Positions 1,985 through 11,439 of a stretch of 64,000 nucleotides of DNA are shown in pieces; position 1 is the stretch's first letter; every line of letters begins with the position of its first letter. Origin of the DNA: an uncultured candidatus Brocadiaceae bacterium (GTDB taxonomy: Bacteria > Planctomycetota > UBA1135 > UBA2386). Made by a program: the position numbers and the translations under genes. The notes under the pieces were generated by a model that worked only from the letters and a program-made list of their open reading frames with translations, did not search any database and was not told the DNA's origin. The DNA lies in the NCBI GenBank assembly GCA_964483245.1, contig CAZABP010000022.1:1-64000 (forward strand), given 5' to 3'.

Positions 1985-4183
1985 TCAGAACCGGATGCGC
2001 GGTCGCTGCAGCCGGCGCAGCTCCGGGGTGCCTTCGATCGCTTCGACCCAGGCGTCGAGCGGCACGTCGGTGAACTGCTGCACGACTCCGCTGGGCCAGC
2101 GGATCTGCAGCCGCCGGATCGCGCGGGCGTTTCCGAGTCCGATCTCCTGGCGCAGCGTCGAGCCGCCGAAACTGCTGACGGCGCCGGCGCAGCGATGCAA
2201 CGTGCGCGGTCCATCGGGCGTGTCGAGTTCCAGCTGCAGGCGCGCACCGACCGCATCGCGGTTGCTGCGCGTGCCGCGCAGCTCGACGACGAGCTGATGA
2301 TTGCCGGTGCCGGGATTCACGTACAGCGCGTTGTAGTAGCGGTCGCCGGGATAGAAGCCGCCGAGCTGGTGGAACAGGTCCTGATCGCCATCGTGATCCA
2401 GATCGGCGAATGCGATCCCATGCCCCTTCTGCAGGTGACCGAGCCCGGCCGCATAGGTGACGTCGACGAAGCGCTGGCCGCCGTCGTTGCGCAGCAGCAG
2501 GTTCGGGATCAGCATCTCGTACCCCGGCTCACCGGTGCCGAGATAGATGTCGAGCCACCCGTCGCCGTCGATGTCGCCGAAGTTGGCACCCATCGGCAGA
2601 CTGACGCGCGCGAGACCGACCTCGCGCGTGACGTCGGTGAAGCGCCCGCCGAGGTTGCGATACATCCGCAGCGTCTCGCCGCCGGTCGGCGGTGCGGTCG
2701 CGCCATTGCTGCGTAGCAGATCGCCGACGACTTCGGCGAGCGTCGCCTGATAGCCGGCCACGAACAGGTCGAGCCGCCCGTCCTGGTCGTAGTCGAAGAA
2801 CCAACACGCAAAGCTCCGCCCGCTCGGCTCGGTCACCCCGAGCTCCGCCGCGACGTCGGTGAACCGCATGCCACCGTCGTTGCGATAGAGCCGGTTGGGA
2901 CCGACGTTCGAGACATAGAGGTCGAGGTCGCCGTCGTCGTCGTAGTCGCCGGCGGCGACGGCCTTGCAGTAGCGGTCGTTCGTCACGCCCGCCGCCGCCG
3001 CGACGTCGGTGAACCTGCCGTCGCCGTCATTGCGGAACAGCTGCGAGGGATAGTCGCCGCCCGGCGGCTCGCGCAGCTCGCGGCGGGATTCGTTGCCGAT
3101 GTAGAGATCGAGGTCACCGTCGCTGTCGAAGTCGGCCCAGACCGCGGCCTGCGTCGGTCGCGCGGGCATGGCGAGCCCCGCGGCGGCGGTGACGTCTTCG
3201 AACCTGCCGTGGCCGTCGTTGCGCAGCAGGGAGTTGCGGATCTGCCCATCGTCCATCAGCCACGCGCCGCGCAGGACCAGCAGATCGACGTCCCCGTCGT
3301 TGTCGTAGTCGGCCTGGACACAGTTGAGTCCGCCGAGCTGCCGTGCGAGCCTGGACTCGTGCCCGACGTCGGCGAACGTGCCATCGCCGCGGTTGCGGAA
3401 GCAGCGCATCGGCCCGAACGGATCGGACGTCGACGAGACCAGGTCCAGGAACCCATCCCGGTCGAGGTCGGCGACGACCGCCCCGCCGCAGAGATCGAGC
3501 GCCGCGATGCCGAGCCGCGGGGCATGGTCGACGAAGCGCGGGATGCCCGGCGCGGTCACGTCCGGCAGCGCGATCTGCAGCGGGAGCGGGAGCGCGTCCG
3601 GGTGACGGGCGGCAGCCAGTGCGGCGACGTTCGCCAGCCAGCGGACGCCGAGCTCGTACGGCTGCGCCTGCAGGTGATCGAGGAACGCGCCGAGCGCGCG
3701 CTCGGCAGGCTCTGCTTCGCGGTGGATCCCGCCGCCCTGGAGCGGCCAGATGCAACAGTCGTGGTCGTGCCGGTCGATGCAGTTGCGGATCTCGGCACGG
3801 CGCAGCCAGGCGAGTCCCCGCCAGTAGTCGAGCTGCGGCAACTGCGCGCGGAACTGCGGCAGCGTCGCGGCGGCGCTGCGCGCACGCTCGATCGCAGCGG
3901 TCGCTTCCTCCGCGTTGCCCAGCCGCAGGTGCTGCCACATCAGCTGCACGTCCAGATCCACGCGGCGCACGTGCGCGTCCGGCGCGAGCTGCGCCCGCTC
4001 TGCCTCGAGCGCCCGCAGCGGTGCCTGCCCGAAATACGGGTTGCCGCCGGCCCGCAGCCGCTCCGCGACCGCGAGCAGGTCCGGCATCGGCGGCGGCGCC
4101 GCGGCCGGTTCCGGGTCACCGCCGCAGGCCGGGAGCAGCAGCAGGACCGCGGCGAGCGGGTGGCGCAGGCTGCGCGAGTGCAT
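1985..4183 (-). CDS. CRTAC1-family lipoprotein with FG-GAP/VCBS repeats and ASPIC/UnbV C-terminal domain
   Basis: Lipobox LLLPAC; many DxDGDxD calcium-binding FG-GAP-like repeats (DYDNDGDVDLL, DFDSDGDLDLY, DYDDDGDLDLY); C-terminal UnbV_ASPIC-like segment. Confidence 0.75.
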   Translation of the reverse strand: MHSRSLRHPLAAVLLLLPACGGDPEPAAAPPPMPDLLAVAERLRAGGNPYFGQAPLRALEAERAQLAPDAHVRRVDLDVQLMWQHLRLGNAEEATAAIERARSAAATLPQFRAQLPQLDYWRGLAWLRRAEIRNCIDRHDHDCCIWPLQGGGIHREAEPAERALGAFLDHLQAQPYELGVRWLANVAALAAARHPDALPLPLQIALPDVTAPGIPRFVDHAPRLGIAALDLCGGAVVADLDRDGFLDLVSSTSDPFGPMRCFRNRGDGTFADVGHESRLARQLGGLNCVQADYDNDGDVDLLVLRGAWLMDDGQIRNSLLRNDGHGRFEDVTAAAGLAMPARPTQAAVWADFDSDGDLDLYIGNESRRELREPPGGDYPSQLFRNDGDGRFTDVAAAAGVTNDRYCKAVAAGDYDDDGDLDLYVSNVGPNRLYRNDGGMRFTDVAAELGVTEPSGRSFACWFFDYDQDGRLDLFVAGYQATLAEVVGDLLRSNGATAPPTGGETLRMYRNLGGRFTDVTREVGLARVSLPMGANFGDIDGDGWLDIYLGTGEPGYEMLIPNLLLRNDGGQRFVDVTYAAGLGHLQKGHGIAFADLDHDGDQDLFHQLGGFYPGDRYYNALYVNPGTGNHQLVVELRGTRSNRDAVGARLQLELDTPDGPRTLHRCAGAVSSFGGSTLRQEIGLGNARAIRRLQIRWPSGVVQQFTDVPLDAWVEAIEGTPELRRLQRPRIRF

Positions 4184-4228
4184 GCGGCGCGCATGCTAGC
4201 CCGCATGACCTGACAGATTGGCGGAACC

Positions 4229-4247
4229 AAAGGGGTCAGACCCCTTC
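4229..4247. repeat. palindromic repeat AAAGGGGTCAGACCCCTTC
   Basis: 19-nt hairpin (7-bp stem, 5-nt loop) in the divergent promoter region between genes 4183(-) and 4313(+). Confidence 0.8.
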
Positions 4248-4312
4248 AGTTCCACGCGGGGGTGTGCCGATCTCCGACAGGCCGGGGCCAGCAGTCCCGG
4301 CAGGAGACTCGC

Positions 4313-5026
4313 ATGAAGCAGGCATGGATCGCGTCGTTGTTTCTCTGCACGGTCGGCCTGGCGCAGGAGCAGCCAGTGCCGCCAGCGCAGCCGATGCAGC
4401 CAGTGCCGCCGGTGCCGCAGCAGGCGCGCGTGTTCTTCGCGTTCGAGGATGCGCCGTTGCACCGCGTCCTCTCGACGATCGCCAAGATCTCCGGCCGGAG
4501 CGTCGAGGCGTCGGCGGAGATCCGTGAGCGGCCGGTGACGTTCCGCGTCAAGAACCTGCCGTGGCGCGATGCGGTGACCGCGATCGCGAGCTCGGTCGGC
4601 GCCACGGTCATCGAGGAGGATGGGACGCTGCGCGTCGTGGCACGGGATGAGCTCATGACGAAGCACTTCCAGCCGAAGTGCGTCGTGCTCGGCAGCGACC
4701 TGCTCGAGAAGCTGCGGAGCGAGCTGACGCCGCGCGGCACGATCGAGTTCTTCGACAAGAACAACCTGTTGATCGTGCGTGACGAGCGCGACGTCGTCGA
4801 CCGGATCGACGGCCTGATCCGCCAGCAGGATCTCGGGCTCCCGGAGCTCGAGAAGCAGCTGCGCGAGATCGCTCTCCGGATCGGCACGTTGAGCACGACG
4901 GGTGCCGCGACGGATGCCGCGCAGATCGCGAAGCTGCTCGCGACGACCGAGGAGATCACCAGGCAGCTGCGCGCGCTGCAGCAGCAACACCAGCCGGCGG
5001 CGCCTGCCCCGCAGCCAGGCCGATGA
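4313..5026 (+). CDS. secreted STN plus secretin-N domain protein lacking a secretin C-terminal barrel
   Basis: Signal peptide MKQAWIASLFLCTVGLAQ; STN-like segment (FEDAPLHRVLSTIAKISGRSVEASAEI...), Secretin_N-like segment (NNLLIVRDERDVVDRIDGLI); coiled-coil, Pro-rich C-terminus. Confidence 0.6.
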   Translation: MKQAWIASLFLCTVGLAQEQPVPPAQPMQPVPPVPQQARVFFAFEDAPLHRVLSTIAKISGRSVEASAEIRERPVTFRVKNLPWRDAVTAIASSVGATVIEEDGTLRVVARDELMTKHFQPKCVVLGSDLLEKLRSELTPRGTIEFFDKNNLLIVRDERDVVDRIDGLIRQQDLGLPELEKQLREIALRIGTLSTTGAATDAAQIAKLLATTEEITRQLRALQQQHQPAAPAPQPGR

Positions 5027-5760
5027 CGACCGAGGATCTCTACTCGCTGTTCGCGGAGTACTCCGGCCTGCCGGTCGAGGACGTCCGCAACGCGGCAGCG
5101 AACTACGCCCTGTTCAACCAGAAGCATTGGCGCGACTGCGCCGGCGAGACCTGGGAGGAACGCGTGCGCGAGTTCTACGCACGGGCGAACGGGTACGTGT
5201 TCGACCTGATCCATTCCAATCGCTCGAAGGAACACCTGCTCGCGATCTACCGGCACTTCGGGCATTGGCCGTGGATGCAGCGTGCGGGACCGGACGTGCT
5301 GGAGTTCGGTGGGGGACTCGGACTGACCTGTTCGATCTTCCGCGAGCTCGGGCGCAACGTGACCTACGTCGACATCGACGGGCCGGTGTCCAGATTCGCG
5401 CGGTGGTACTTCGCGCGCACCGGCCAGCAGGACATCGAGGTCTGGCTGACGCCGCAGGAGCGGGCCGTGCTGCCGCCGGACCGGCAGTGGGACTTCGTGT
5501 TCTCGGACTCGGTGATCGAGCACCTGCTCGATCCGTCTGGCACCGTGGACACGCTCGCGCGTGCCGTGCGTCCCGGCGGCGTGCTGTACCTGATCATCGA
5601 CGCGCACACCGTCGACGAACGGTTCCCGATGCACCGCCACATCCAGCTCACCGAGTTGTTGGCCGGCGCGCCCGCGCTCGCGGCGATGCATCACGTACTG
5701 CACGACGGGGACGGGCTGAACGTGTTCCGCGCCCCGGCGCGGGTCACCGTCGAAGCCTGA
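5023..5760 (+). CDS. class I SAM-dependent methyltransferase
   Basis: LEFGGGLG glycine-rich SAM motif; about 245 aa; ATGA overlap with upstream STN gene. Confidence 0.75.
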   Translation: MTTEDLYSLFAEYSGLPVEDVRNAAANYALFNQKHWRDCAGETWEERVREFYARANGYVFDLIHSNRSKEHLLAIYRHFGHWPWMQRAGPDVLEFGGGLGLTCSIFRELGRNVTYVDIDGPVSRFARWYFARTGQQDIEVWLTPQERAVLPPDRQWDFVFSDSVIEHLLDPSGTVDTLARAVRPGGVLYLIIDAHTVDERFPMHRHIQLTELLAGAPALAAMHHVLHDGDGLNVFRAPARVTVEA

Positions 5761-5835
5761 GCGATTGCAGCGGACGGGGTCGGCCGGCACGCTCGCCCCA
5801 TGGCTTCTCCTGTTGCATGGTCTCTGTCGGTTGCT

Positions 5836-5870
5836 GATCCCGAAGGGGTCTGACCCCTTTGGGATCAGGA
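5836..5870. repeat. extended palindrome GATCCCGAAGGGGTCTGACCCCTTTGGGATC
   Basis: 31-nt near-perfect palindrome containing the same core, in the convergent region between gene ends 5760(+) and 5875(-); likely a bidirectional terminator hairpin. Confidence 0.8.
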
Positions 5871-5874
5871 CCAG

Positions 5875-6990
5875 TCACTTTGCGCTGGCAGGGTCGAGCT
5901 TCCACTCGCCCCCGAGCGTCGATTTGCACGCATCAGGTGCTCCGTCGGTAGTGCACCGCAGCTCGATCCGGTCGCGCAGCTCCGGTTCGCCGCCCGCCAG
6001 CCGGATCTCGGGTGAGCGCGCCAACAGCCGGCGCCGCTGCGGATCCGTCGCGTCTCGCCACAGCTCGAACTGGTACCTGCCGGGCGGGATGAGCTTCAGC
6101 TCCCAACGACCGGGCGCCTGCGGGGGCGGGCGGATCTCATGGCTGAGGCCGGTGCCAACGCAACTGAATCCGAGCGTCACGCGTCCGGCATCGATCCCTT
6201 CGCAGGCGAGCTCCAGGCCGAGCGTCATGCTGTGCCCGCGCTCGATCGTGATGGTGTCGCTGCGCCATTCCGCGATGGATCGGATCGTTCTCGCAGCACG
6301 CGGGATCACGCCGTCGCCAGCCATCCGGACCTCGAGCGACGCTGCTCCGTCCCGGATGTCCCGCACCAGGCGGAACATGCCACTGGCATCGGTGGTCAAG
6401 GTCTCGAACGCGCCGCTTCCGTTGTCGTAGCGCATCTGCACATTGGCGCTGGCGACTGGAACGCCCGCCGGATCCACCACGAATCCGATCCGGGCAGCCG
6501 CGGTCGTCAACACCGGGTTCCAGATCGAGGTCTCATCGGGACGCAACGTGAGTGTGGTCACGGCCTTTGGTCCTGGATTGCCGACCGTCCCCGGGTTGGT
6601 CGTGTGCCAGGCGACGAGGCGCACTTCGCCGAGTGGAAGCCCGTGCAGCTCGAAGGCGCCAGTCGCATCCGTCTCGGTTCGGATCGAGCCGAAGGAACCG
6701 TACTCGCCATGCTCGACGCCGATGCCCGTCTCGGCGCGTTCCCCTGTCGCCCCGTCATACGCCACGCCGCGCACGAGGGCCGAGCGTTGCAGCGTCAGCT
6801 CGATCGGGTCCTCGGTCCTCGATGCCCAGTAGATCTCGGTCTGCAGCAGCGCGAATCCCTGCGCCTTGACGGCGACCCGATGGAACAGCGGACTCGACAG
6901 CTCGAGGCCACGGATGGTCACCATCCCCGCCATGTCCGTGTGTAGTTCCTTCCCATGCGGCATGTAGTTGCAGGACGCTTTGCGCGTCAC
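5875..6990 (-). CDS. carboxypeptidase-regulatory-like beta-sandwich repeat protein, possibly the C-terminal part of the upstream sigma-fusion ORF interrupted by TAG
   Basis: No signal peptide; same reading frame as ORF 7015-8745, separated by one TAG at 7015-7017; repeated beta-sandwich-like segments similar to upstream ORF. Confidence 0.5.
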   Translation of the reverse strand: MTRKASCNYMPHGKELHTDMAGMVTIRGLELSSPLFHRVAVKAQGFALLQTEIYWASRTEDPIELTLQRSALVRGVAYDGATGERAETGIGVEHGEYGSFGSIRTETDATGAFELHGLPLGEVRLVAWHTTNPGTVGNPGPKAVTTLTLRPDETSIWNPVLTTAAARIGFVVDPAGVPVASANVQMRYDNGSGAFETLTTDASGMFRLVRDIRDGAASLEVRMAGDGVIPRAARTIRSIAEWRSDTITIERGHSMTLGLELACEGIDAGRVTLGFSCVGTGLSHEIRPPPQAPGRWELKLIPPGRYQFELWRDATDPQRRRLLARSPEIRLAGGEPELRDRIELRCTTDGAPDACKSTLGGEWKLDPASAK

Positions 6991-7014
6991 TGGGTCGAAG
7001 TCGCGAGCGACCCG

Positions 7015-8510
7015 CTAATGACCGAGGAACAGCGAAGCGTGTGGAACGGGATTGCCTGCGGCGTCCCGGATGCGCACGCGACGCTCGGGTGCGACCCTGC
7101 CGAGCGTCAGTCGGATCTCCGCTGGCTCCAGCTCCTGGTTGATGCCGCAGAGCGGTGAGCGCACGAAGCCCTCGAGCTCGGCGCCCAGCATGAATGGACC
7201 GGTAGGTTTCACGAGGAGCTCGAACCGCCCCGACGCATCGGCACGACCGGCAATGGCGATTGGCCGGGCTGCGAGATCATCCGTCTGCATCAGGACCGCA
7301 CCTGCTGCAGGAGAACCGTCAGCGTGCACGACGACACCGCGCAGCCTGCGCGCGGGGGGCACATCGATCCGCAGCTCTTCCGTGCTGCCCGTGGCGACCT
7401 GCACGCGGCCACTGCCGCCACGGAACGGATGCGCGACAAACGACCCGGGTCCGAATGGGCCGAATCGTGCACGGCCATCGGCATCTGCATACGCAACCAG
7501 CGTCTCGTGCGCGGATCTCCTCGGACTTGCGAAGTACGTGTGCGCGATCGCGGCGCCCGGAACAGGAGTCTCCGTCCCGGCCTCGACGAGGCGGACGAGG
7601 ACCCACCCGTGAGGGTCTGCCGCCGGCGCCTCGGCGCGCCCTGATCCCTCCGGCGTTCCCTTCTCCGCGAGCTCGAGTCCGGCTGCCGGTGTCTCCTGCC
7701 CGAGGGCAGCGCTCACGGCTCCGGCAGAGTCTGTGGCAGATTCGTGGCCACCGGGCGAGCCATGTGCGCCGTTCACGATGAGCGCGCCCGACACCAGCAA
7801 TGCCGCCGCGACGACTCCGAGGACGAGCTTCTTCATGGCAAGTGCTCCGCCGATCACGATCGGTGCGACCGTTCCCGCGACTCCCGACGCCGCTGCCCGG
7901 ACGATCGCCTCGCGGGCTGCGGCCAGTCCAACTGCGGCCTCTGCGTGCGCCAGCACCGACACGGCCACCCCGGCCGGCAGCATGCGGCGCAACATCCCGA
8001 GGCCACGTTCGATCTGCTTGCGCACCGCAGCCGGCGATCGCCCGAGCGCATGCGCGATCTGGACCGAGCTCAGCCCGTGCAGCAGGCGGAGCACCAACGC
8101 ATCGCGGTATGGATCCGGCAGCGATTCGACGGCTCCGAGGACATGGTGCATCGATTCGCTGTCGATCGCGGCGCGCAGCGGATCCGGCTCCTGCGACTGC
8201 GGCGCGTCGTGCTGCAGCGCGTGCGATGGCCGTCGCGCCTCCGCGCGCCGTAGGTCCTGCGCCCGATGCGCGAGGATCCCCGCCAGCCACGCCAGTACCG
8301 GTTGCTCCCGATCCCAGCTCGCCGCATCGCGCACTGCCTGCAGGAACGTCGTCTGGACCAGATCCTCGGCGGAGGCCGGGTCGCGCGTCCAATGACTCGC
8401 CAGCAACAGCAGCTTCGGTGCTGCGCGATCGAACAGCTCCGCCATCGCAGCGGGATCCCCGCTGTGGCACCACTGTTCGAATGCCTCGTCTTCGGGCGCG
8501 CGCGTCACGC
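7015..8510 (-). CDS. ECF sigma-70 factor fused to transmembrane segment and extracytoplasmic beta-sandwich domain
   Basis: GTG start 8510; sigma region 2 (AEDLVQTTFLQAVR) and region 4 (LPDPYRDALVLRLLHGLSSVQIAHALGRSPAAVRKQIERG); then TM helix KKLVLGVVAAALLVSGALIV and about 270-aa periplasmic domain; no stop between the parts. Confidence 0.65.
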
Positions 8511-8554
8511 TGCGGATGCGACCGGTGGCGCGCGAGTGTGACAAGGTGAGACCG

Positions 8555-8579
8555 AAAGGGTCTGACCCCTTTAGGATCA
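8555..8579. repeat. palindromic repeat GAAAGGGTCTGACCCCTTTAGGATC
   Basis: Same core (one G short) 5 nt upstream of the MFS ATG and 45 nt upstream of the ECF sigma GTG (divergent). Confidence 0.75.
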
Positions 8580-8583
8580 CCGC

Positions 8584-9774
8584 ATGCCGGGCGGCACGAC
8601 TCCGGACCGCGCGCTCGCGCTGATCTCGCTCGCGGTCCTGCTCGCGTCGGCGACCTGGTTCTCGGGGACGGCGGTTGCGCCGGAGCTCGCGCTGGCGTGG
8701 GGACTCGGGTCCGGCGGGAGCGCGTGGCTGACGTCGTCGGTGCAACTCGGCTTCATCACCGGGACGTTCGCGCTGGCGCTGTTGAACCTTGCCGACCGGT
8801 TCGATGCGCGGCGTGTGTTCGCGCTCTCGGCACTCGGCGGCGCCGCGGCGAACGCTGCGTTCGCGCTGCTGGGCGACGGGCTCGCGCTGGCGACGCTGTT
8901 CCGCTTTGCCACCGGGTTCGCGCTCGCCGGCGTCTATCCGGTCGGCATGAAGCTGGTCGCCTCCTGGTCCGCGACCGGCCTCGGCTGGCGGCTCGGGGTC
9001 ATGGTCGGCGCGTTGGTCGCGGGCACCGCGATCCCGTATGGCATCCGTTGGCTCGGCCTGGAGCTCCCGTGGCGCGCGACGGTGCTGGCCGCGTCAGCCT
9101 GCGCAATGGTTGGCGCGCTGGTCGTGTTGTTGCTGCCACATGGTCCACACCTGCGCGGACGCGCGGCATTCGCGCCCCGCATGGTCTGGCGCGTATTCCG
9201 GGATCCCGCGTTCCGGGCCAACTCGTTCGGCTACTTCGGGCACATGTGGGAGCTGTACGCGCTGTGGTCGCTGATCGCGTTCCCGCTGCAGGCTTCGCTC
9301 GGCGATACGACCGCGGTGCCGCTGCTCGCGTTCCTCGTGGTCGCCGCGGGAGTGGTGGGCTGTGTCGGCGGTGGTTGGCTGTCCCGCCGGATCGGCGAGC
9401 GGCGCACGGCGCTGTTCGCACTGATCGGCAGCGCATGCGCGTGCCTCGGCTCCGGCTGGTTGTTCGCGTGCCCACCTTGGCTGTTGATCCCGTGCCTGCT
9501 GCTGTGGGGCATGCTGGTCGTCGCCGATTCGCCGCAGTTCTCCGCGCTCGCGGCGCGCCTGTGTCCGCCGGAATACACGGCAACGGCGCTGACGATCCAG
9601 AACGGCATCGGCTTCGCGATCACGGTCGTGTCGATCCAGTGCGTCGCTTGGACCGCCGAACTGGTCGGCTGGCGTTGGGCCTTCCTGCTGTTGGCCCCTG
9701 GCCCATTGCTGGGCGCGGCGGCGATGATCCGCCTCGGCCGGCTCGTCCCGAGTACTCTCGGCGGCCCGCCGTAG
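8584..9774 (+). CDS. MFS transporter
   Basis: 396 aa, about 12 predicted TM helices, MFS-like loop motifs. Confidence 0.75.
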   Translation: MPGGTTPDRALALISLAVLLASATWFSGTAVAPELALAWGLGSGGSAWLTSSVQLGFITGTFALALLNLADRFDARRVFALSALGGAAANAAFALLGDGLALATLFRFATGFALAGVYPVGMKLVASWSATGLGWRLGVMVGALVAGTAIPYGIRWLGLELPWRATVLAASACAMVGALVVLLLPHGPHLRGRAAFAPRMVWRVFRDPAFRANSFGYFGHMWELYALWSLIAFPLQASLGDTTAVPLLAFLVVAAGVVGCVGGGWLSRRIGERRTALFALIGSACACLGSGWLFACPPWLLIPCLLLWGMLVVADSPQFSALAARLCPPEYTATALTIQNGIGFAITVVSIQCVAWTAELVGWRWAFLLLAPGPLLGAAAMIRLGRLVPSTLGGPP

Positions 9775-9802
9775 TGCGCCCTTCCGCTGCCCGGAGCAAC
9801 CC

Positions 9803-10273
9803 ATGGCCTTCGATCTACCCCTGCCTTCCTCCCTCGTCGCGGGCGCCAGTTCCGGCATGGAGTGGGCCTGGTTCGGGATCGCGGCGACGTTCGCGTTCGC
9901 GCTGCTGCCGTTCCTGATGTATGGGCTGCGCCGCCTGTTCGAAGGCCCCGCCGCGCGCGAGTTCGCGATCCTGGAGAAGGAACTGGCGCGCAAGGACCTC
10001 GATCCGGCACGCCGCGACCAGATCATCGACAAGATCGCCACGCGGGTCGCCACCCAGCGGCCGGGCACCTCGCTCGTGAGCCGGCTGATGGTGGGGGTGG
10101 GTTGGGTCGGTCTCGTGATCGGAATTGCGATCGCCTCGATGACCTACGGGAATGCCCAGCAGGGAGCGATCTACCTGGCGATCGCCGGTGGAACCCTGAT
10201 GACGCTGCCGTTCATCATCCGCGAGTGGGACCGCCGCAGCGGCACGGCGCAGGACACGAGCCCGTTCCGCTGA
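9803..10273 (+). CDS. small integral membrane protein (hypothetical)
   Basis: 156 aa, 3-4 hydrophobic helices, GC3-biased; sits between the MFS and type III PKS genes. Confidence 0.45.
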   Translation: MAFDLPLPSSLVAGASSGMEWAWFGIAATFAFALLPFLMYGLRRLFEGPAAREFAILEKELARKDLDPARRDQIIDKIATRVATQRPGTSLVSRLMVGVGWVGLVIGIAIASMTYGNAQQGAIYLAIAGGTLMTLPFIIREWDRRSGTAQDTSPFR

Positions 10274-10344
10274 GCGGCGGAATGGCCGCGCGGGCCGGGC
10301 CCCGGGCAGCCGCCGGCGCCTGAGCGTCGTATACCGCTGTCGGC

Positions 10345-11439
10345 ATGGACGAAGCCGGCACCGTGACGATCCCCTCGACCGCCCCCGCGATCGCCGCCGT
10401 CGGCGTGGCGCTCCCGCCGCACCGCTACCAGCAGCAGGAGATCCTGCAGGCGGTGCAGCAGATCTGGCGCGAGCATGCCGCCGAGATCCGGCGCCTCGGT
10501 TCGTTGCACGAACACACGCTGGTCGACGCACGCCACTTCGCGCTGCCGCTCGAGCAGTATGCCGAGCTGACGTCGTTCGGCCGCGCCAACGATGCCTGGA
10601 TCCGCGTCGCGCGCGAGCTCGGCGCGCGCGCGATGACTGACGCGCTCGCGCAGGCCGGTTTCGCTCCGCGCGATATCGATGCGATGTTCACGGTCAGCGT
10701 CACCGGGATCTGCAGCCCGTCACTCGACGCGCTGCTCAGCAACGATCTCGCGCTGCGGCCGGATCTGAAGCGCACGCCGATCTTCGGTCTCGGCTGTGCG
10801 GGTGGCGCAGCCGGGATCGCGCGTGCCGCCGACTACCTGCGTGGTGATCCGGACGGAGTGGCAGTGTTGCTGTCGGTCGAACTCTGCACGTTGAACTTCC
10901 AGCGCGACGATCTCTCGGTTGCGCACCAGATCGCGACCGGCCTGTTCGGCGATGGCGCCGCTGCGGTCGTCCTGGTCGGCGCGCGCCGTGCGCGCACGCA
11001 GCAGCCGCGCGTCGTCGCGACGCGCGCGCGTCTGTATCCCGACACCGAAGAGCTGATGGGCTGGCGCATCGACGAGCGCGGCTTCCGGATCCAGCTCCTG
11101 GCGGCCGTCCCGGACGTCGCGCGCACGCGCTTGCCAGCCGACGTCGACGGGTTTCTCGCCGAGCACGGTCTGCAACGCGCCGACATCGCTGCCTGGATCG
11201 GCCATCCGGGCGGACCGCGCGTGCTCGAAGCGATGCAGGAAGGGCTCGGGCTGTCGCGCGAGCAGCTCCGGCACGCGTGGGACGTGCTGCGCGAGACCGG
11301 GAACCTGAGCAGCACGTCGGTCCTGCTCGTGCTCGCGCGCGTGCTGGCGGAGCGAGCGTGGCCGCCTGGCGCACCAGCGTTGCTGTTCGCGCTCGGGCCC
11401 GGGTTCTGCGCGGAGTTGGCGCTGCTGCGCCGTTCGTAG
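10345..11439 (+). CDS. type III polyketide synthase (chalcone/stilbene synthase family)
   Basis: Active-site Cys in GLGCAGGAAG, His in GHPGGPRVL, Asn in GNLSSTSVL; about 364 aa. Confidence 0.8.
   Translation: MDEAGTVTIPSTAPAIAAVGVALPPHRYQQQEILQAVQQIWREHAAEIRRLGSLHEHTLVDARHFALPLEQYAELTSFGRANDAWIRVARELGARAMTDALAQAGFAPRDIDAMFTVSVTGICSPSLDALLSNDLALRPDLKRTPIFGLGCAGGAAGIARAADYLRGDPDGVAVLLSVELCTLNFQRDDLSVAHQIATGLFGDGAAAVVLVGARRARTQQPRVVATRARLYPDTEELMGWRIDERGFRIQLLAAVPDVARTRLPADVDGFLAEHGLQRADIAAWIGHPGGPRVLEAMQEGLGLSREQLRHAWDVLRETGNLSSTSVLLVLARVLAERAWPPGAPALLFALGPGFCAELALLRRS

Follow-up and report, generated by a model that had tools for sequence, protein, structure and literature searches.

A recent nonsense mutation very probably splits a membrane-anchored ECF sigma factor gene in an uncultured planctomycete

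Background

C-terminal extensions are the second most common mode of regulation among ECF sigma factors, and in Planctomycetes they run long, vary in Pfam content and show little conservation (Casas-Pastor et al. 2021, PMC7826278; Pinto & da Fonseca 2020, PMC7671368). In ECFs of this kind the extension replaces an anti-sigma factor with a gene of its own, and the best-studied examples (SnoaL-like, TPR and Cys-rich) are cytoplasmic. In the RseA/RsiW paradigm, single-pass membrane anti-sigma factors are under regulated proteolysis; truncation of the periplasmic part can deregulate them, and single-pass anti-sigma factors with shortened periplasmic domains are prone to intramembrane cleavage.

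The locus described here lies in a 64-kb stretch of DNA (the window; 64,000 nucleotides) from an uncultured candidatus Brocadiaceae bacterium. Like ECFs with fused C-terminal extensions, its product consists of sigma regions 2 and 4 only, followed by a long extension; unlike the best-studied ones, this extension is predicted to cross the membrane, and unlike other extended ECFs it has been shortened by a nonsense codon. The word 'carboxypeptidase' has 0 occurrences in the main texts of PMC7826278 and PMC7671368, and the combination of a transmembrane (TM) helix with about seven CarboxypepD_reg-like beta-sandwiches is therefore unnamed in them. The layout is like that of RseA/RsiW in having a cytoplasmic sigma-interacting part, one TM helix and a periplasmic sensing domain, a comparison of mechanism and not of membership; unlike RseA/RsiW, the sigma factor is covalently fused here and no anti-sigma domain family was detected with Pfam. 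The two ORFs of this locus are very probably a single gene of about 877 residues that was split by a recent, strain-specific GAG-to-TAG nonsense mutation.

Results

Layout of the locus

The two ORFs share a reading frame on the minus strand (7015-5875 = 1140 = 380 x 3). The upstream one terminates in ...LFLGH-TAG with the stop at 7017..7015, and the downstream ORF (5875..6990, 371 codons) is opened by GTG 6990 and closed by TGA 5877..5875, although gene callers start this C-terminal remnant at ATG 6924 (349 aa, P0034). Between the TAG and GTG 6990, the first possible restart codon, lie eight sense codons (6991..7014, read 7014..6991 on the minus strand) that encode RVARDFDP, the same residues as in intact alleles; the preliminary description of an in-frame pair one TAG and eight sense codons apart was thus accurate. 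Because the DNA is 69% GC and long ORFs are present in all frames, such a pair with one stop between its members is unremarkable; the case for one gene rests on homology and not on the shared frame.

The start of the upstream ORF had been placed at TTG 8745, the mechanical ORF start, but alignment to the N-termini of P0002 and P0006 and to the family consensus favours GTG 8508 as the probable real start. Other start calls are GTG 8580 (Prodigal, 521 aa, P0033) and ATG 8445 (NCBI, 476 aa, P0036). Counting from GTG 8508, the N-terminal part of the gene has 497 codons (7018..8508, minus strand), and the codon sum is 497 + 1 + 379 = 877, close to the joined protein of approximately 878 aa proposed earlier.

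Domain architecture and structure model

Pfam analysis of the upstream ORF identified sigma-70 region 2 (PF04542 Sigma70_r2; 8230..8436, minus strand, residues 104-172 of the 576-aa mechanical ORF; E 4.2e-11, 42.9 bits against a cut-off of 24) and an ECF-type sigma-70 region 4 (PF08281 Sigma70_r4_2; 7999..8136, minus strand; E 5.1e-10, 39.3 bits against a cut-off of 25.7), with no match to sigma region 3 or region 1. The NCBIfam model TIGR02937 (sigma70-ECF) scored 66 bits against a cut-off of 42.9, and all NCBIfam subfamily models were under their cut-offs, the top one being TIGR02983 (80 bits against 141.6). With regions 2 and 4 above cut-off and regions 1.1 and 3 absent, the protein is an ECF (group 4) sigma-70 factor. 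With about 620 residues past region 4 in the intact sister-strain protein P0001 and about 270 in the truncated window product, it also belongs to the ECFs with a C-terminal extension, a class that requires more than 50 aa fused after region 4.

Hydropathy analysis showed one strong TM segment in the upstream ORF (LVLGVVAAALLVSGALIVN; 7771..7827, minus strand; 19-residue Kyte-Doolittle mean of 2.45), which the AlphaFold2 model of P0001 shows as a single helix at residues 249-270. In the downstream ORF both a TM segment (19-residue Kyte-Doolittle maximum of 1.16) and a signal peptide are absent, as had been reported in the preliminary description, and its N-terminus is not hydrophobic. CarboxypepD_reg (PF13620) matched the downstream ORF in two stretches at 51.5 bits, above the gathering cut-off of 32.3, and the upstream ORF at 31.9 bits, marginally below it. 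The two ORFs had been called paralogous; the same repeat type is indeed found in both halves, but both halves belong within one protein.

The AlphaFold2 model of the intact allele (mean pLDDT 71.7) is all-beta beyond residue 325 and contains about seven 7-stranded units. Upstream of the stop, 7018..8508 covers the two ECF sigma domains (2 and 4), the helical juxtamembrane region and the one TM helix; behind these come a disordered linker, the first two beta-sandwich domains and strands 1-2 of domain 3. The remnant encodes the remainder of beta-sandwich 3 and about four further beta-sandwich domains, as judged from PF13620 and the structure model. In the model, the stop cuts within the third periplasmic CarboxypepD_reg-like beta-sandwich (6787..7089, minus strand), leaving no intact domain there in either fragment: strands 1-2 (residues 500-506 and 516-520) are upstream of residue 522, the Glu/stop position, and a loop with pLDDT below 50 directly past the stop (523-541) leads to five more strands (544-597). 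The junction fragment aligned to PF13620 across the stop over profile positions 4-63, although this match is weak and sub-threshold (E 0.08), and the family motif G.V.D..G.P...A.V spans the stop site in 25 homologues.

Homologues and sister haplotypes

A homologue search returned 32 matches, essentially all of which are single proteins of 872-1327 aa with Sigma70_r2/r4_2 and CarboxypepD_reg; the lone short match, P0014 (505 aa), is on a 1,676-bp contig, and none of the 32 corresponds to the second half standing alone. Each of the 25 homologues that were aligned (872-1142 aa, Planctomycetes-type) is one protein and extends 364-588 residues beyond the stop column. The relatives with a source name are labelled Planctomycetes or Planctomycetota. 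A scan of species-representative genome contigs with P0001 found only two distant relatives (27-28% identity), and an exact search of metagenome contigs with a 52-mer spanning the stop, its variable base set to N, gave 0 matches. Exact look-up in the contig index found the Prodigal-style 521-aa and the 349-aa products; the 371-aa GTG-start product and the NCBI 476-aa product were absent from this index.

P0001 (96% identity, 100% coverage) is a sister-strain protein of 901 aa as called, or 877 aa from the likelier start, that reads ...LFLGH-E-RVARDFDP... through the junction. Its contig is syntenic with the window and 98.1% identical to positions 2918-9253, and the sole difference between 7244 and 6188 (1,056 bp) is a G->T change at 7017. 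Another intact haplotype, represented by P0035 in two runs, has GAG too, so that two sister haplotypes at 97-98% DNA identity encode Glu in one continuous ORF where the window has TAG (7015..7017, minus strand). GAG is present in L001, L008 and L009, and TAG in the window, L004-L007 and L010-L013; the GAG runs are SRR27710303 and SRR31738699/700. Continuity of the ORF in orthologues, which the preliminary description had proposed to check, was therefore found both in the sister strains (901-aa call) and in distant homologues, which are single long proteins; no orthologues were encountered that form two genes of which the second has an export signal. There are 0 TAG-haplotype-specific sites downstream of the stop. 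Whole-gene dN/dS is 0.3-0.4; comparison of the two intact alleles over the C-terminal half gives 0.34, which indicates that this half is a normally constrained coding region. The comparison demonstrates that the mutation is real and recent and that the intact allele persists in sister strains, in line with the recent pseudogenisation that had been one of the initial readings.

Differences between the haplotypes are clustered. A diversity-generating retroelement was considered as their source and rejected, as the substitutions are not adenine-specific and blocks are shared among haplotypes in a mosaic; synonymous divergence is also raised between haplotypes (dS 0.19-0.24 in the TM/linker segment), and the clustering fits allelic recombination.

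Surroundings

The sigma gene is flanked by a divergent MFS transporter gene and a convergent methyltransferase gene; neither of these two neighbours, the ones that were examined, has an anti-sigma Pfam domain. Just 3' of the gene, between the two convergent genes, is a palindromic element (GATCCCGAAGGGGTCTGACCCCTTTGGGATC, 5836..5866, no strand assigned) that may act as a bidirectional transcript end; it has no T-tract and was not called in the terminator scan. A promoter/terminator consensus scan of 5600-8800 found no sites, including none between the two halves, which is weak evidence in such organisms.

Alternative explanations for the stop codon

A sequencing or assembly error, with a genome that is truly GAG and a gene that is intact, would be suggested by the mismatch at one base to a 98%-identical relative, nothing else being changed within 1 kb. 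The TAG, however, occurs in a 100% identical gene in 8 independently assembled contigs from 6 separate runs (SRR18162974, -75, -76, -77, SRR10807626 and SRR10807893) as well as in the window, and because the sequences are identical base for base, it is not a random error; the six runs belong to two accession series only and may all sample one culture, reactor or site, a shared origin that would still exclude random error but would say little on allele spread. Public proteins also include NCBI-sourced entries (476 aa and 349 aa) whose sequences match the two truncated products exactly. The stop is thus real in the DNA, by the same base in contigs of six runs and two series, and an error is extremely improbable; of the preliminary alternative 'nonsense mutation or sequencing error', the first part holds, given GAG in the sisters, and the second does not. 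Programmed readthrough or recoding of the TAG (by a suppressor tRNA or as pyrrolysine) to give a regulated full-length product had also been raised. The frame is kept, the 379 downstream codons are intact and the stop is followed by C, a context in which bacterial termination is relatively weak, but an intact downstream frame is expected anyway with a mutation so young. The TAG itself is not conserved among orthologues, with GAG in both sister haplotypes and varied sense residues at the stop column in distant homologues. TAG is the stop of 7/40 high-GC3 ORFs, among them two conserved neighbours, an MFS gene (396 aa) and a type III PKS gene (364 aa), which have the same lengths in relatives; because TAG ends these neighbours, genome-wide TAG reassignment was rejected. 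No suppressor tRNA or tRNA-CUA is present within the 64-kb window, where the sole tRNA is tRNA-Ala(GGC), and the 100 nt past the stop show no unusual structure, folding no better than shuffles (z = -0.43). Programmed readthrough is accordingly highly improbable, although trace near-cognate readthrough at a low level might occur.

Functional fission, in which the ORFs would now be two useful genes for a shortened sigma-sensor and a separate beta-sandwich protein, is very unlikely. Gene callers and NCBI-sourced entries do list two proteins (476 or 521 aa, and 349 aa), and an allele that is the consensus in contigs of six runs is not strongly counter-selected. The cut, however, falls inside a beta-sandwich domain, the second ORF has no export signal though the homologous region is periplasmic in the intact protein, none of the 32 matches is a free-standing second half, and no compensatory change followed the mutation. 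The ribosome-binding site and start of the downstream ORF, which had been marked for inspection, were not convincing either: no convincing Shine-Dalgarno sequence was seen at the four candidate starts (GTG 6990 and ATG 6963, 6933 and 6924), and the only purine-rich run upstream of the candidate restarts is GGGAAGGAA, ending 13 nt before ATG 6933.

Discussion

A single gene recently disrupted by a nonsense mutation is the reading we favour. The ancestral gene encodes about 877 residues (901 by the Prodigal start): sigma domains 2 and 4 in the cytoplasm lead through a short helical juxtamembrane region into the one TM helix, which is followed by a disordered linker and, in the periplasm, about seven CarboxypepD_reg-like beta-sandwich domains. 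In the window strain, one G->T transversion turned the GAG (Glu) at codon 522 (Prodigal numbering) into TAG. Translation is expected to end there, giving a sigma-TM protein whose periplasmic part consists of two complete domains plus a stub of two strands, and the remaining ~380 codons would be untranslated or weakly translated from an internal start, the product of which would be cytoplasmic and non-functional, with its start in the middle of a domain. With the sigma module untouched, the truncated protein is probably still inserted into the membrane, and signal-dependent control is probably lost or deregulated because most of the presumed sensory/binding array is gone. By analogy, the direction of deregulation could be constitutive release, and proteolytic release as in RseA/RsiW could apply to the window protein.

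The window allele is an ordinary young truncated allele. Like ordinary bacterial nonsense alleles, it has a single base change that makes a stop in an otherwise intact frame, an intact allele in conspecific strains with >97% DNA identity, and no secondary decay; its one particular trait is an N-terminal output module, the sigma factor, that remains whole, and for this reason the allele may be a regulatory change rather than a null. That the truncation is adaptive rather than neutral decay, converting a signal-gated tethered sigma factor into a deregulated and perhaps constitutively released one, is unlikely. If it were true, the mutation would have removed five of about seven periplasmic beta-sandwiches, the gene would be a contingency locus that evolves fast and is shuffled by recombination in this Planctomycete population, and weak near-cognate readthrough of TAG-C might supply trace full-length sensor.

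The split gene bears on no long-standing open question. For annotation, the NCBI-sourced 476-aa and 349-aa entries are to be treated as parts of a single disrupted gene, and no family of free-standing beta-sandwich proteins should be built on the 349-aa 'protein'. We know of no experimental demonstration by anyone of how this class of regulator signals. The two alleles constitute a small natural experiment, in which strains of the same species carry the membrane-anchored ECF sigma factor either at full length or with its sensor truncated, and comparison of the sigma regulon between TAG and GAG strains could reveal the role of the periplasmic repeat array.

An in-frame stop codon divides one ECF sigma factor gene

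On the minus strand, a single reading frame extends from 8745 to 5872, in which a 576-codon mechanical ORF terminates at ...RIRDAAGNPVPHASLFLGH-TAG (TAG at 7017..7015) and is followed by eight codons (RVARDFDP; 7014..6991) and by a 371-codon ORF running from GTG 6990 to TGA 5877..5875 in frame with the first, bearing out the preliminary description of two same-frame ORFs separated by one TAG and eight sense codons. CarboxypepD-type repeats, also described for both ORFs, were recovered by Pfam (CarboxypepD_reg, PF13620; 51.5 bits in two stretches downstream, borderline upstream), together with Sigma70_r2 and Sigma70_r4_2 in the upstream ORF, the N-terminus of which was placed in the ECF superfamily by NCBIfam (TIGR02937, 66 bits against a cut-off of 42.9). 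Hydropathy analysis gave a single strong hydrophobic segment in the upstream ORF (~7827..7771; 19-residue Kyte-Doolittle mean 2.45) and none in the downstream ORF (19-residue maximum 1.16), in agreement with the latter's reported lack of a transmembrane (TM) segment or export signal. Since long ORFs arise in every frame of this 69% G+C DNA, the shared frame means little by itself, and the case for one gene was made by homology.

With the stop written as X, the fused translation was searched against a collection of 5.8 billion proteins and matched 32, nearly all single chains of 872-1327 aa with Sigma70_r2/r4_2 and CarboxypepD_reg-type domains; source names, where given for the few matches, were Planctomycetes or Planctomycetota. 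The sole clearly short match (P0014, 505 aa) is cut by the end of its 1,676-bp contig, and none of the 32 matches to the fused query was a stand-alone relative of the downstream half. In a 26-protein alignment every homologue runs 364-588 residues past the stop column, and the stop position falls in a recurring repeat motif (G-x-V-x-D-x-x-G-x-P-x-x-x-A-x-V), where the homologue P0005 reads GRVVDADGNPVPHAWLAIGVDEDARDE and the window reads VRIRDAAGNPVPHASLFLGH, the stop, then RVARDF. The best match, the sister allele P0001 (901 aa, 96% identity, 100% coverage), is continuous and reads ...LFLGH-E-RVARDFDP... at this position. The orthologue comparison that had been proposed thus upheld the reading of one protein broken by a stop, and shows that the ancestral state is a single gene.

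The nonsense substitution is real and recent

The contig carrying P0001 (L001; Logan assembly, SRR27710303) is syntenic with window positions 2918-9253 and 98.1% identical, and between 7244 and 6188 (1,056 bp) the sole difference is a G to T change at 7017 that converts GAG to TAG. Four further members were found in the 90%-identity cluster of P0001: a second intact allele (P0035, 901 aa), the upstream product of the window from Prodigal's start (P0033, 521 aa), the upstream product from ATG 8445 (P0036, 476 aa, NCBI-sourced; 7018-8445, minus strand), and the downstream ORF from ATG 6924 (P0034, 349 aa, NCBI and Logan; 5878-6924, minus strand). P0036 and P0034 are entered as separate proteins (longest contig 82,359 bp), with nothing to mark them as parts of one disrupted gene.

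GAG contigs came from SRR27710303, SRR31738699 and SRR31738700. Random sequencing error was rejected because the T recurs in independent assemblies from six runs in two accession series (SRR18162974, -75, -76, -77, SRR10807626 and SRR10807893); the aligned TAG contigs (L004-L007) equal the window at every base over the gene parts covered. Three haplotypes, A (TAG), B (L001) and C (L008/L009), are mosaics of one another: B and C jointly differ from A in 8469-7558, B alone differs in 7477-7244 and 6188-6125, and C alone differs in most of 6979-5924. Comparison of the three haplotypes left A with a single private site between 7558 and the gene end, the T at 7017, and with none in the 1,140 bp past the stop, which shows that the nonsense change is derived and young. 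Young nonsense alleles confined to particular strains are a common, well-understood type of variation.

Programmed readthrough of the TAG, which had also been put forward, is unsupported because the closest relatives lack the TAG, and the 100 nt beginning at the stop folded no more stably than shuffled controls (z = -0.43). Nothing in the window points to codon reassignment: the adjacent MFS gene (8584-9774, 396 aa) and the type III polyketide synthase-like gene (10345-11439, 364 aa) have TAG as their ordinary stop codon and keep their lengths in related contigs, and TAG terminates 7 of the 40 high-GC3 ORFs. The sole tRNA in the window is tRNA-Ala(GGC). Between the halves there is no sigma-70-type promoter and no intrinsic terminator pattern. 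The plausible ribosome-binding site sought for the downstream ORF did not emerge, no well-spaced Shine-Dalgarno being present at any of the candidate restart codons (GTG 6990, ATG 6963, ATG 6933 and ATG 6924), and the sole purine-rich run, GGGAAGGAA, stops 13 nt short of ATG 6933. Functional fission into two useful genes is unlikely, since the second half, homologous to a periplasmic region, has no export signal and starts partway through a domain, and no compensating change has arisen in it.

The stop falls within a predicted domain

An AlphaFold2 model of P0001 was built with the 26-sequence alignment (mean pLDDT 71.7, pTM 0.49), with high confidence in the sigma domains and most beta-strands. 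It comprises a helical region (29-232; sigma-2, sigma-4 and a juxtamembrane helical pair), a TM helix (249-270), a disordered linker (271-319) and thereafter about seven beta-sandwich units. Residue 522, the Glu/stop position, lies immediately after strands 500-506 and 516-520 (pLDDT about 90); beyond it come a loop of low confidence (523-541) and five more strands (544-597). A 111-residue junction fragment aligned weakly (E 0.08) with CarboxypepD_reg profile positions 4-63, across the stop, and neither half of the fragment alone matched this profile. Because modelled strands flank residue 522 and the profile alignment spans the stop, the stop is predicted to interrupt a domain; in the model the upstream product ends as a two-strand stub and the downstream ORF opens mid-domain. 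The helical segment joining sigma-4 to the TM helix (7900-8000, minus strand; P0001 ~203-232) carries a motif conserved in the family alignment (consensus GRGLAAVR; window AVGLAAAR) and could be an in-cis regulatory or anti-sigma-like element.

Divergence, start codon and surroundings of the gene

Among these conspecific haplotypes (window, L001, L008 and L009) the sigma-fusion gene (5875-8580) is a local divergence hot spot, A and B differing at 80 sites in the 2,706-bp gene versus 27 substitutions in ~3,640 bp of flanks. By the Nei-Gojobori method, dN/dS was 0.32-0.40 for the whole gene and 0.34 for the C-terminal 379 codons between two intact alleles, the latter indicating, from substitution patterns, that the region past the stop is a normally constrained coding region and not a spurious ORF. 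Mosaic blocks (8469-7558, 7477-7244, 6188-6125 and 6106-5923), which the three haplotypes share in differing combinations, together with synonymous divergence of up to 0.19-0.24 in the TM/linker segment, suggest that allelic recombination, rather than relaxed constraint alone, lies behind this divergence.

Three starts are in use for the gene (minus strand): Prodigal's GTG 8580, NCBI's ATG 8445 and the homologue-supported GTG 8508. Both the mechanical TTG 8745 and GTG 8580 read across a palindromic intergenic element (8555-8571), and the MFS gene, which runs the opposite way, starts at 8584, just 3 bp from GTG 8580. ATG 8445 drops family-conserved residues (consensus F-x-R-F-R-x-x-G-D-P-x-A-L-A-R-V-F-D; window AFEQWCHSGDPAAMAELFD). 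GTG 8508 is the most likely start, matching the homologue P0006 in N-terminal length, and would make the intact protein 877 aa long.

The palindromic element (core AAGGGGTC[A/T]GACCCCTT, long form GATCCCGAAGGGGTCTGACCCCTTTGGGATC) occurs three times within 4.3 kb (4230-4246, 5836-5866 and 8555-8571), always intergenic, with no copy in the other ~60 kb of the window and 0 expected by chance. The copies bracket a secretin-N/methyltransferase pair and the sigma gene, and the element translates as GSDPFG in spurious ORFs, including the N-terminus of Prodigal's 901-aa call. A 14-bp indel separates L001 from the window at the 4230 copy. The element may be a putative REP-like element or bidirectional transcript end. 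Divergent from the sigma gene are three plus-strand genes (8584-11439), in an arrangement kept in related contigs, encoding the MFS transporter, a 156-aa protein with no Pfam match (9803-10273) and the type III polyketide synthase/chalcone-synthase-like protein; as a conjecture, they are candidate sigma-factor targets.

Proposed consequence of the truncation

Fused C-terminal extensions have been treated as in-cis regulators replacing anti-sigma factors, and those of Planctomycetes are long and highly variable (PMC7826278, PMC7671368). By the criteria tested, the window protein is an ECF sigma factor with a C-terminal extension. Ribosomes would terminate at the TAG, releasing a protein of ~497 residues (counted from GTG 8508) in which the sigma module would be whole and the TM anchor and two beta-sandwiches of the periplasmic part would be kept; the leftover ~380 codons would go untranslated or give, at most, a fragment stranded in the cytoplasm. 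As a guess, we favour a periplasmic array that detects or binds some envelope ligand and thereby controls whether the sigma domain is active or released; on that view the truncated allele would no longer perceive the signal, and would be either locked off or deregulated and constitutively on. Shortening the periplasmic parts of single-pass anti-sigma factors can leave the system deregulated and constitutively on, which the second outcome would parallel by analogy only.

A practical lesson for annotation is that a single gene accounts for both NCBI-sourced proteins (476 aa and 349 aa), each of which is a fragment of it. Strains that naturally carry GAG or TAG may offer a mildly interesting comparison of a full-length with a sensor-truncated membrane-anchored sigma factor.
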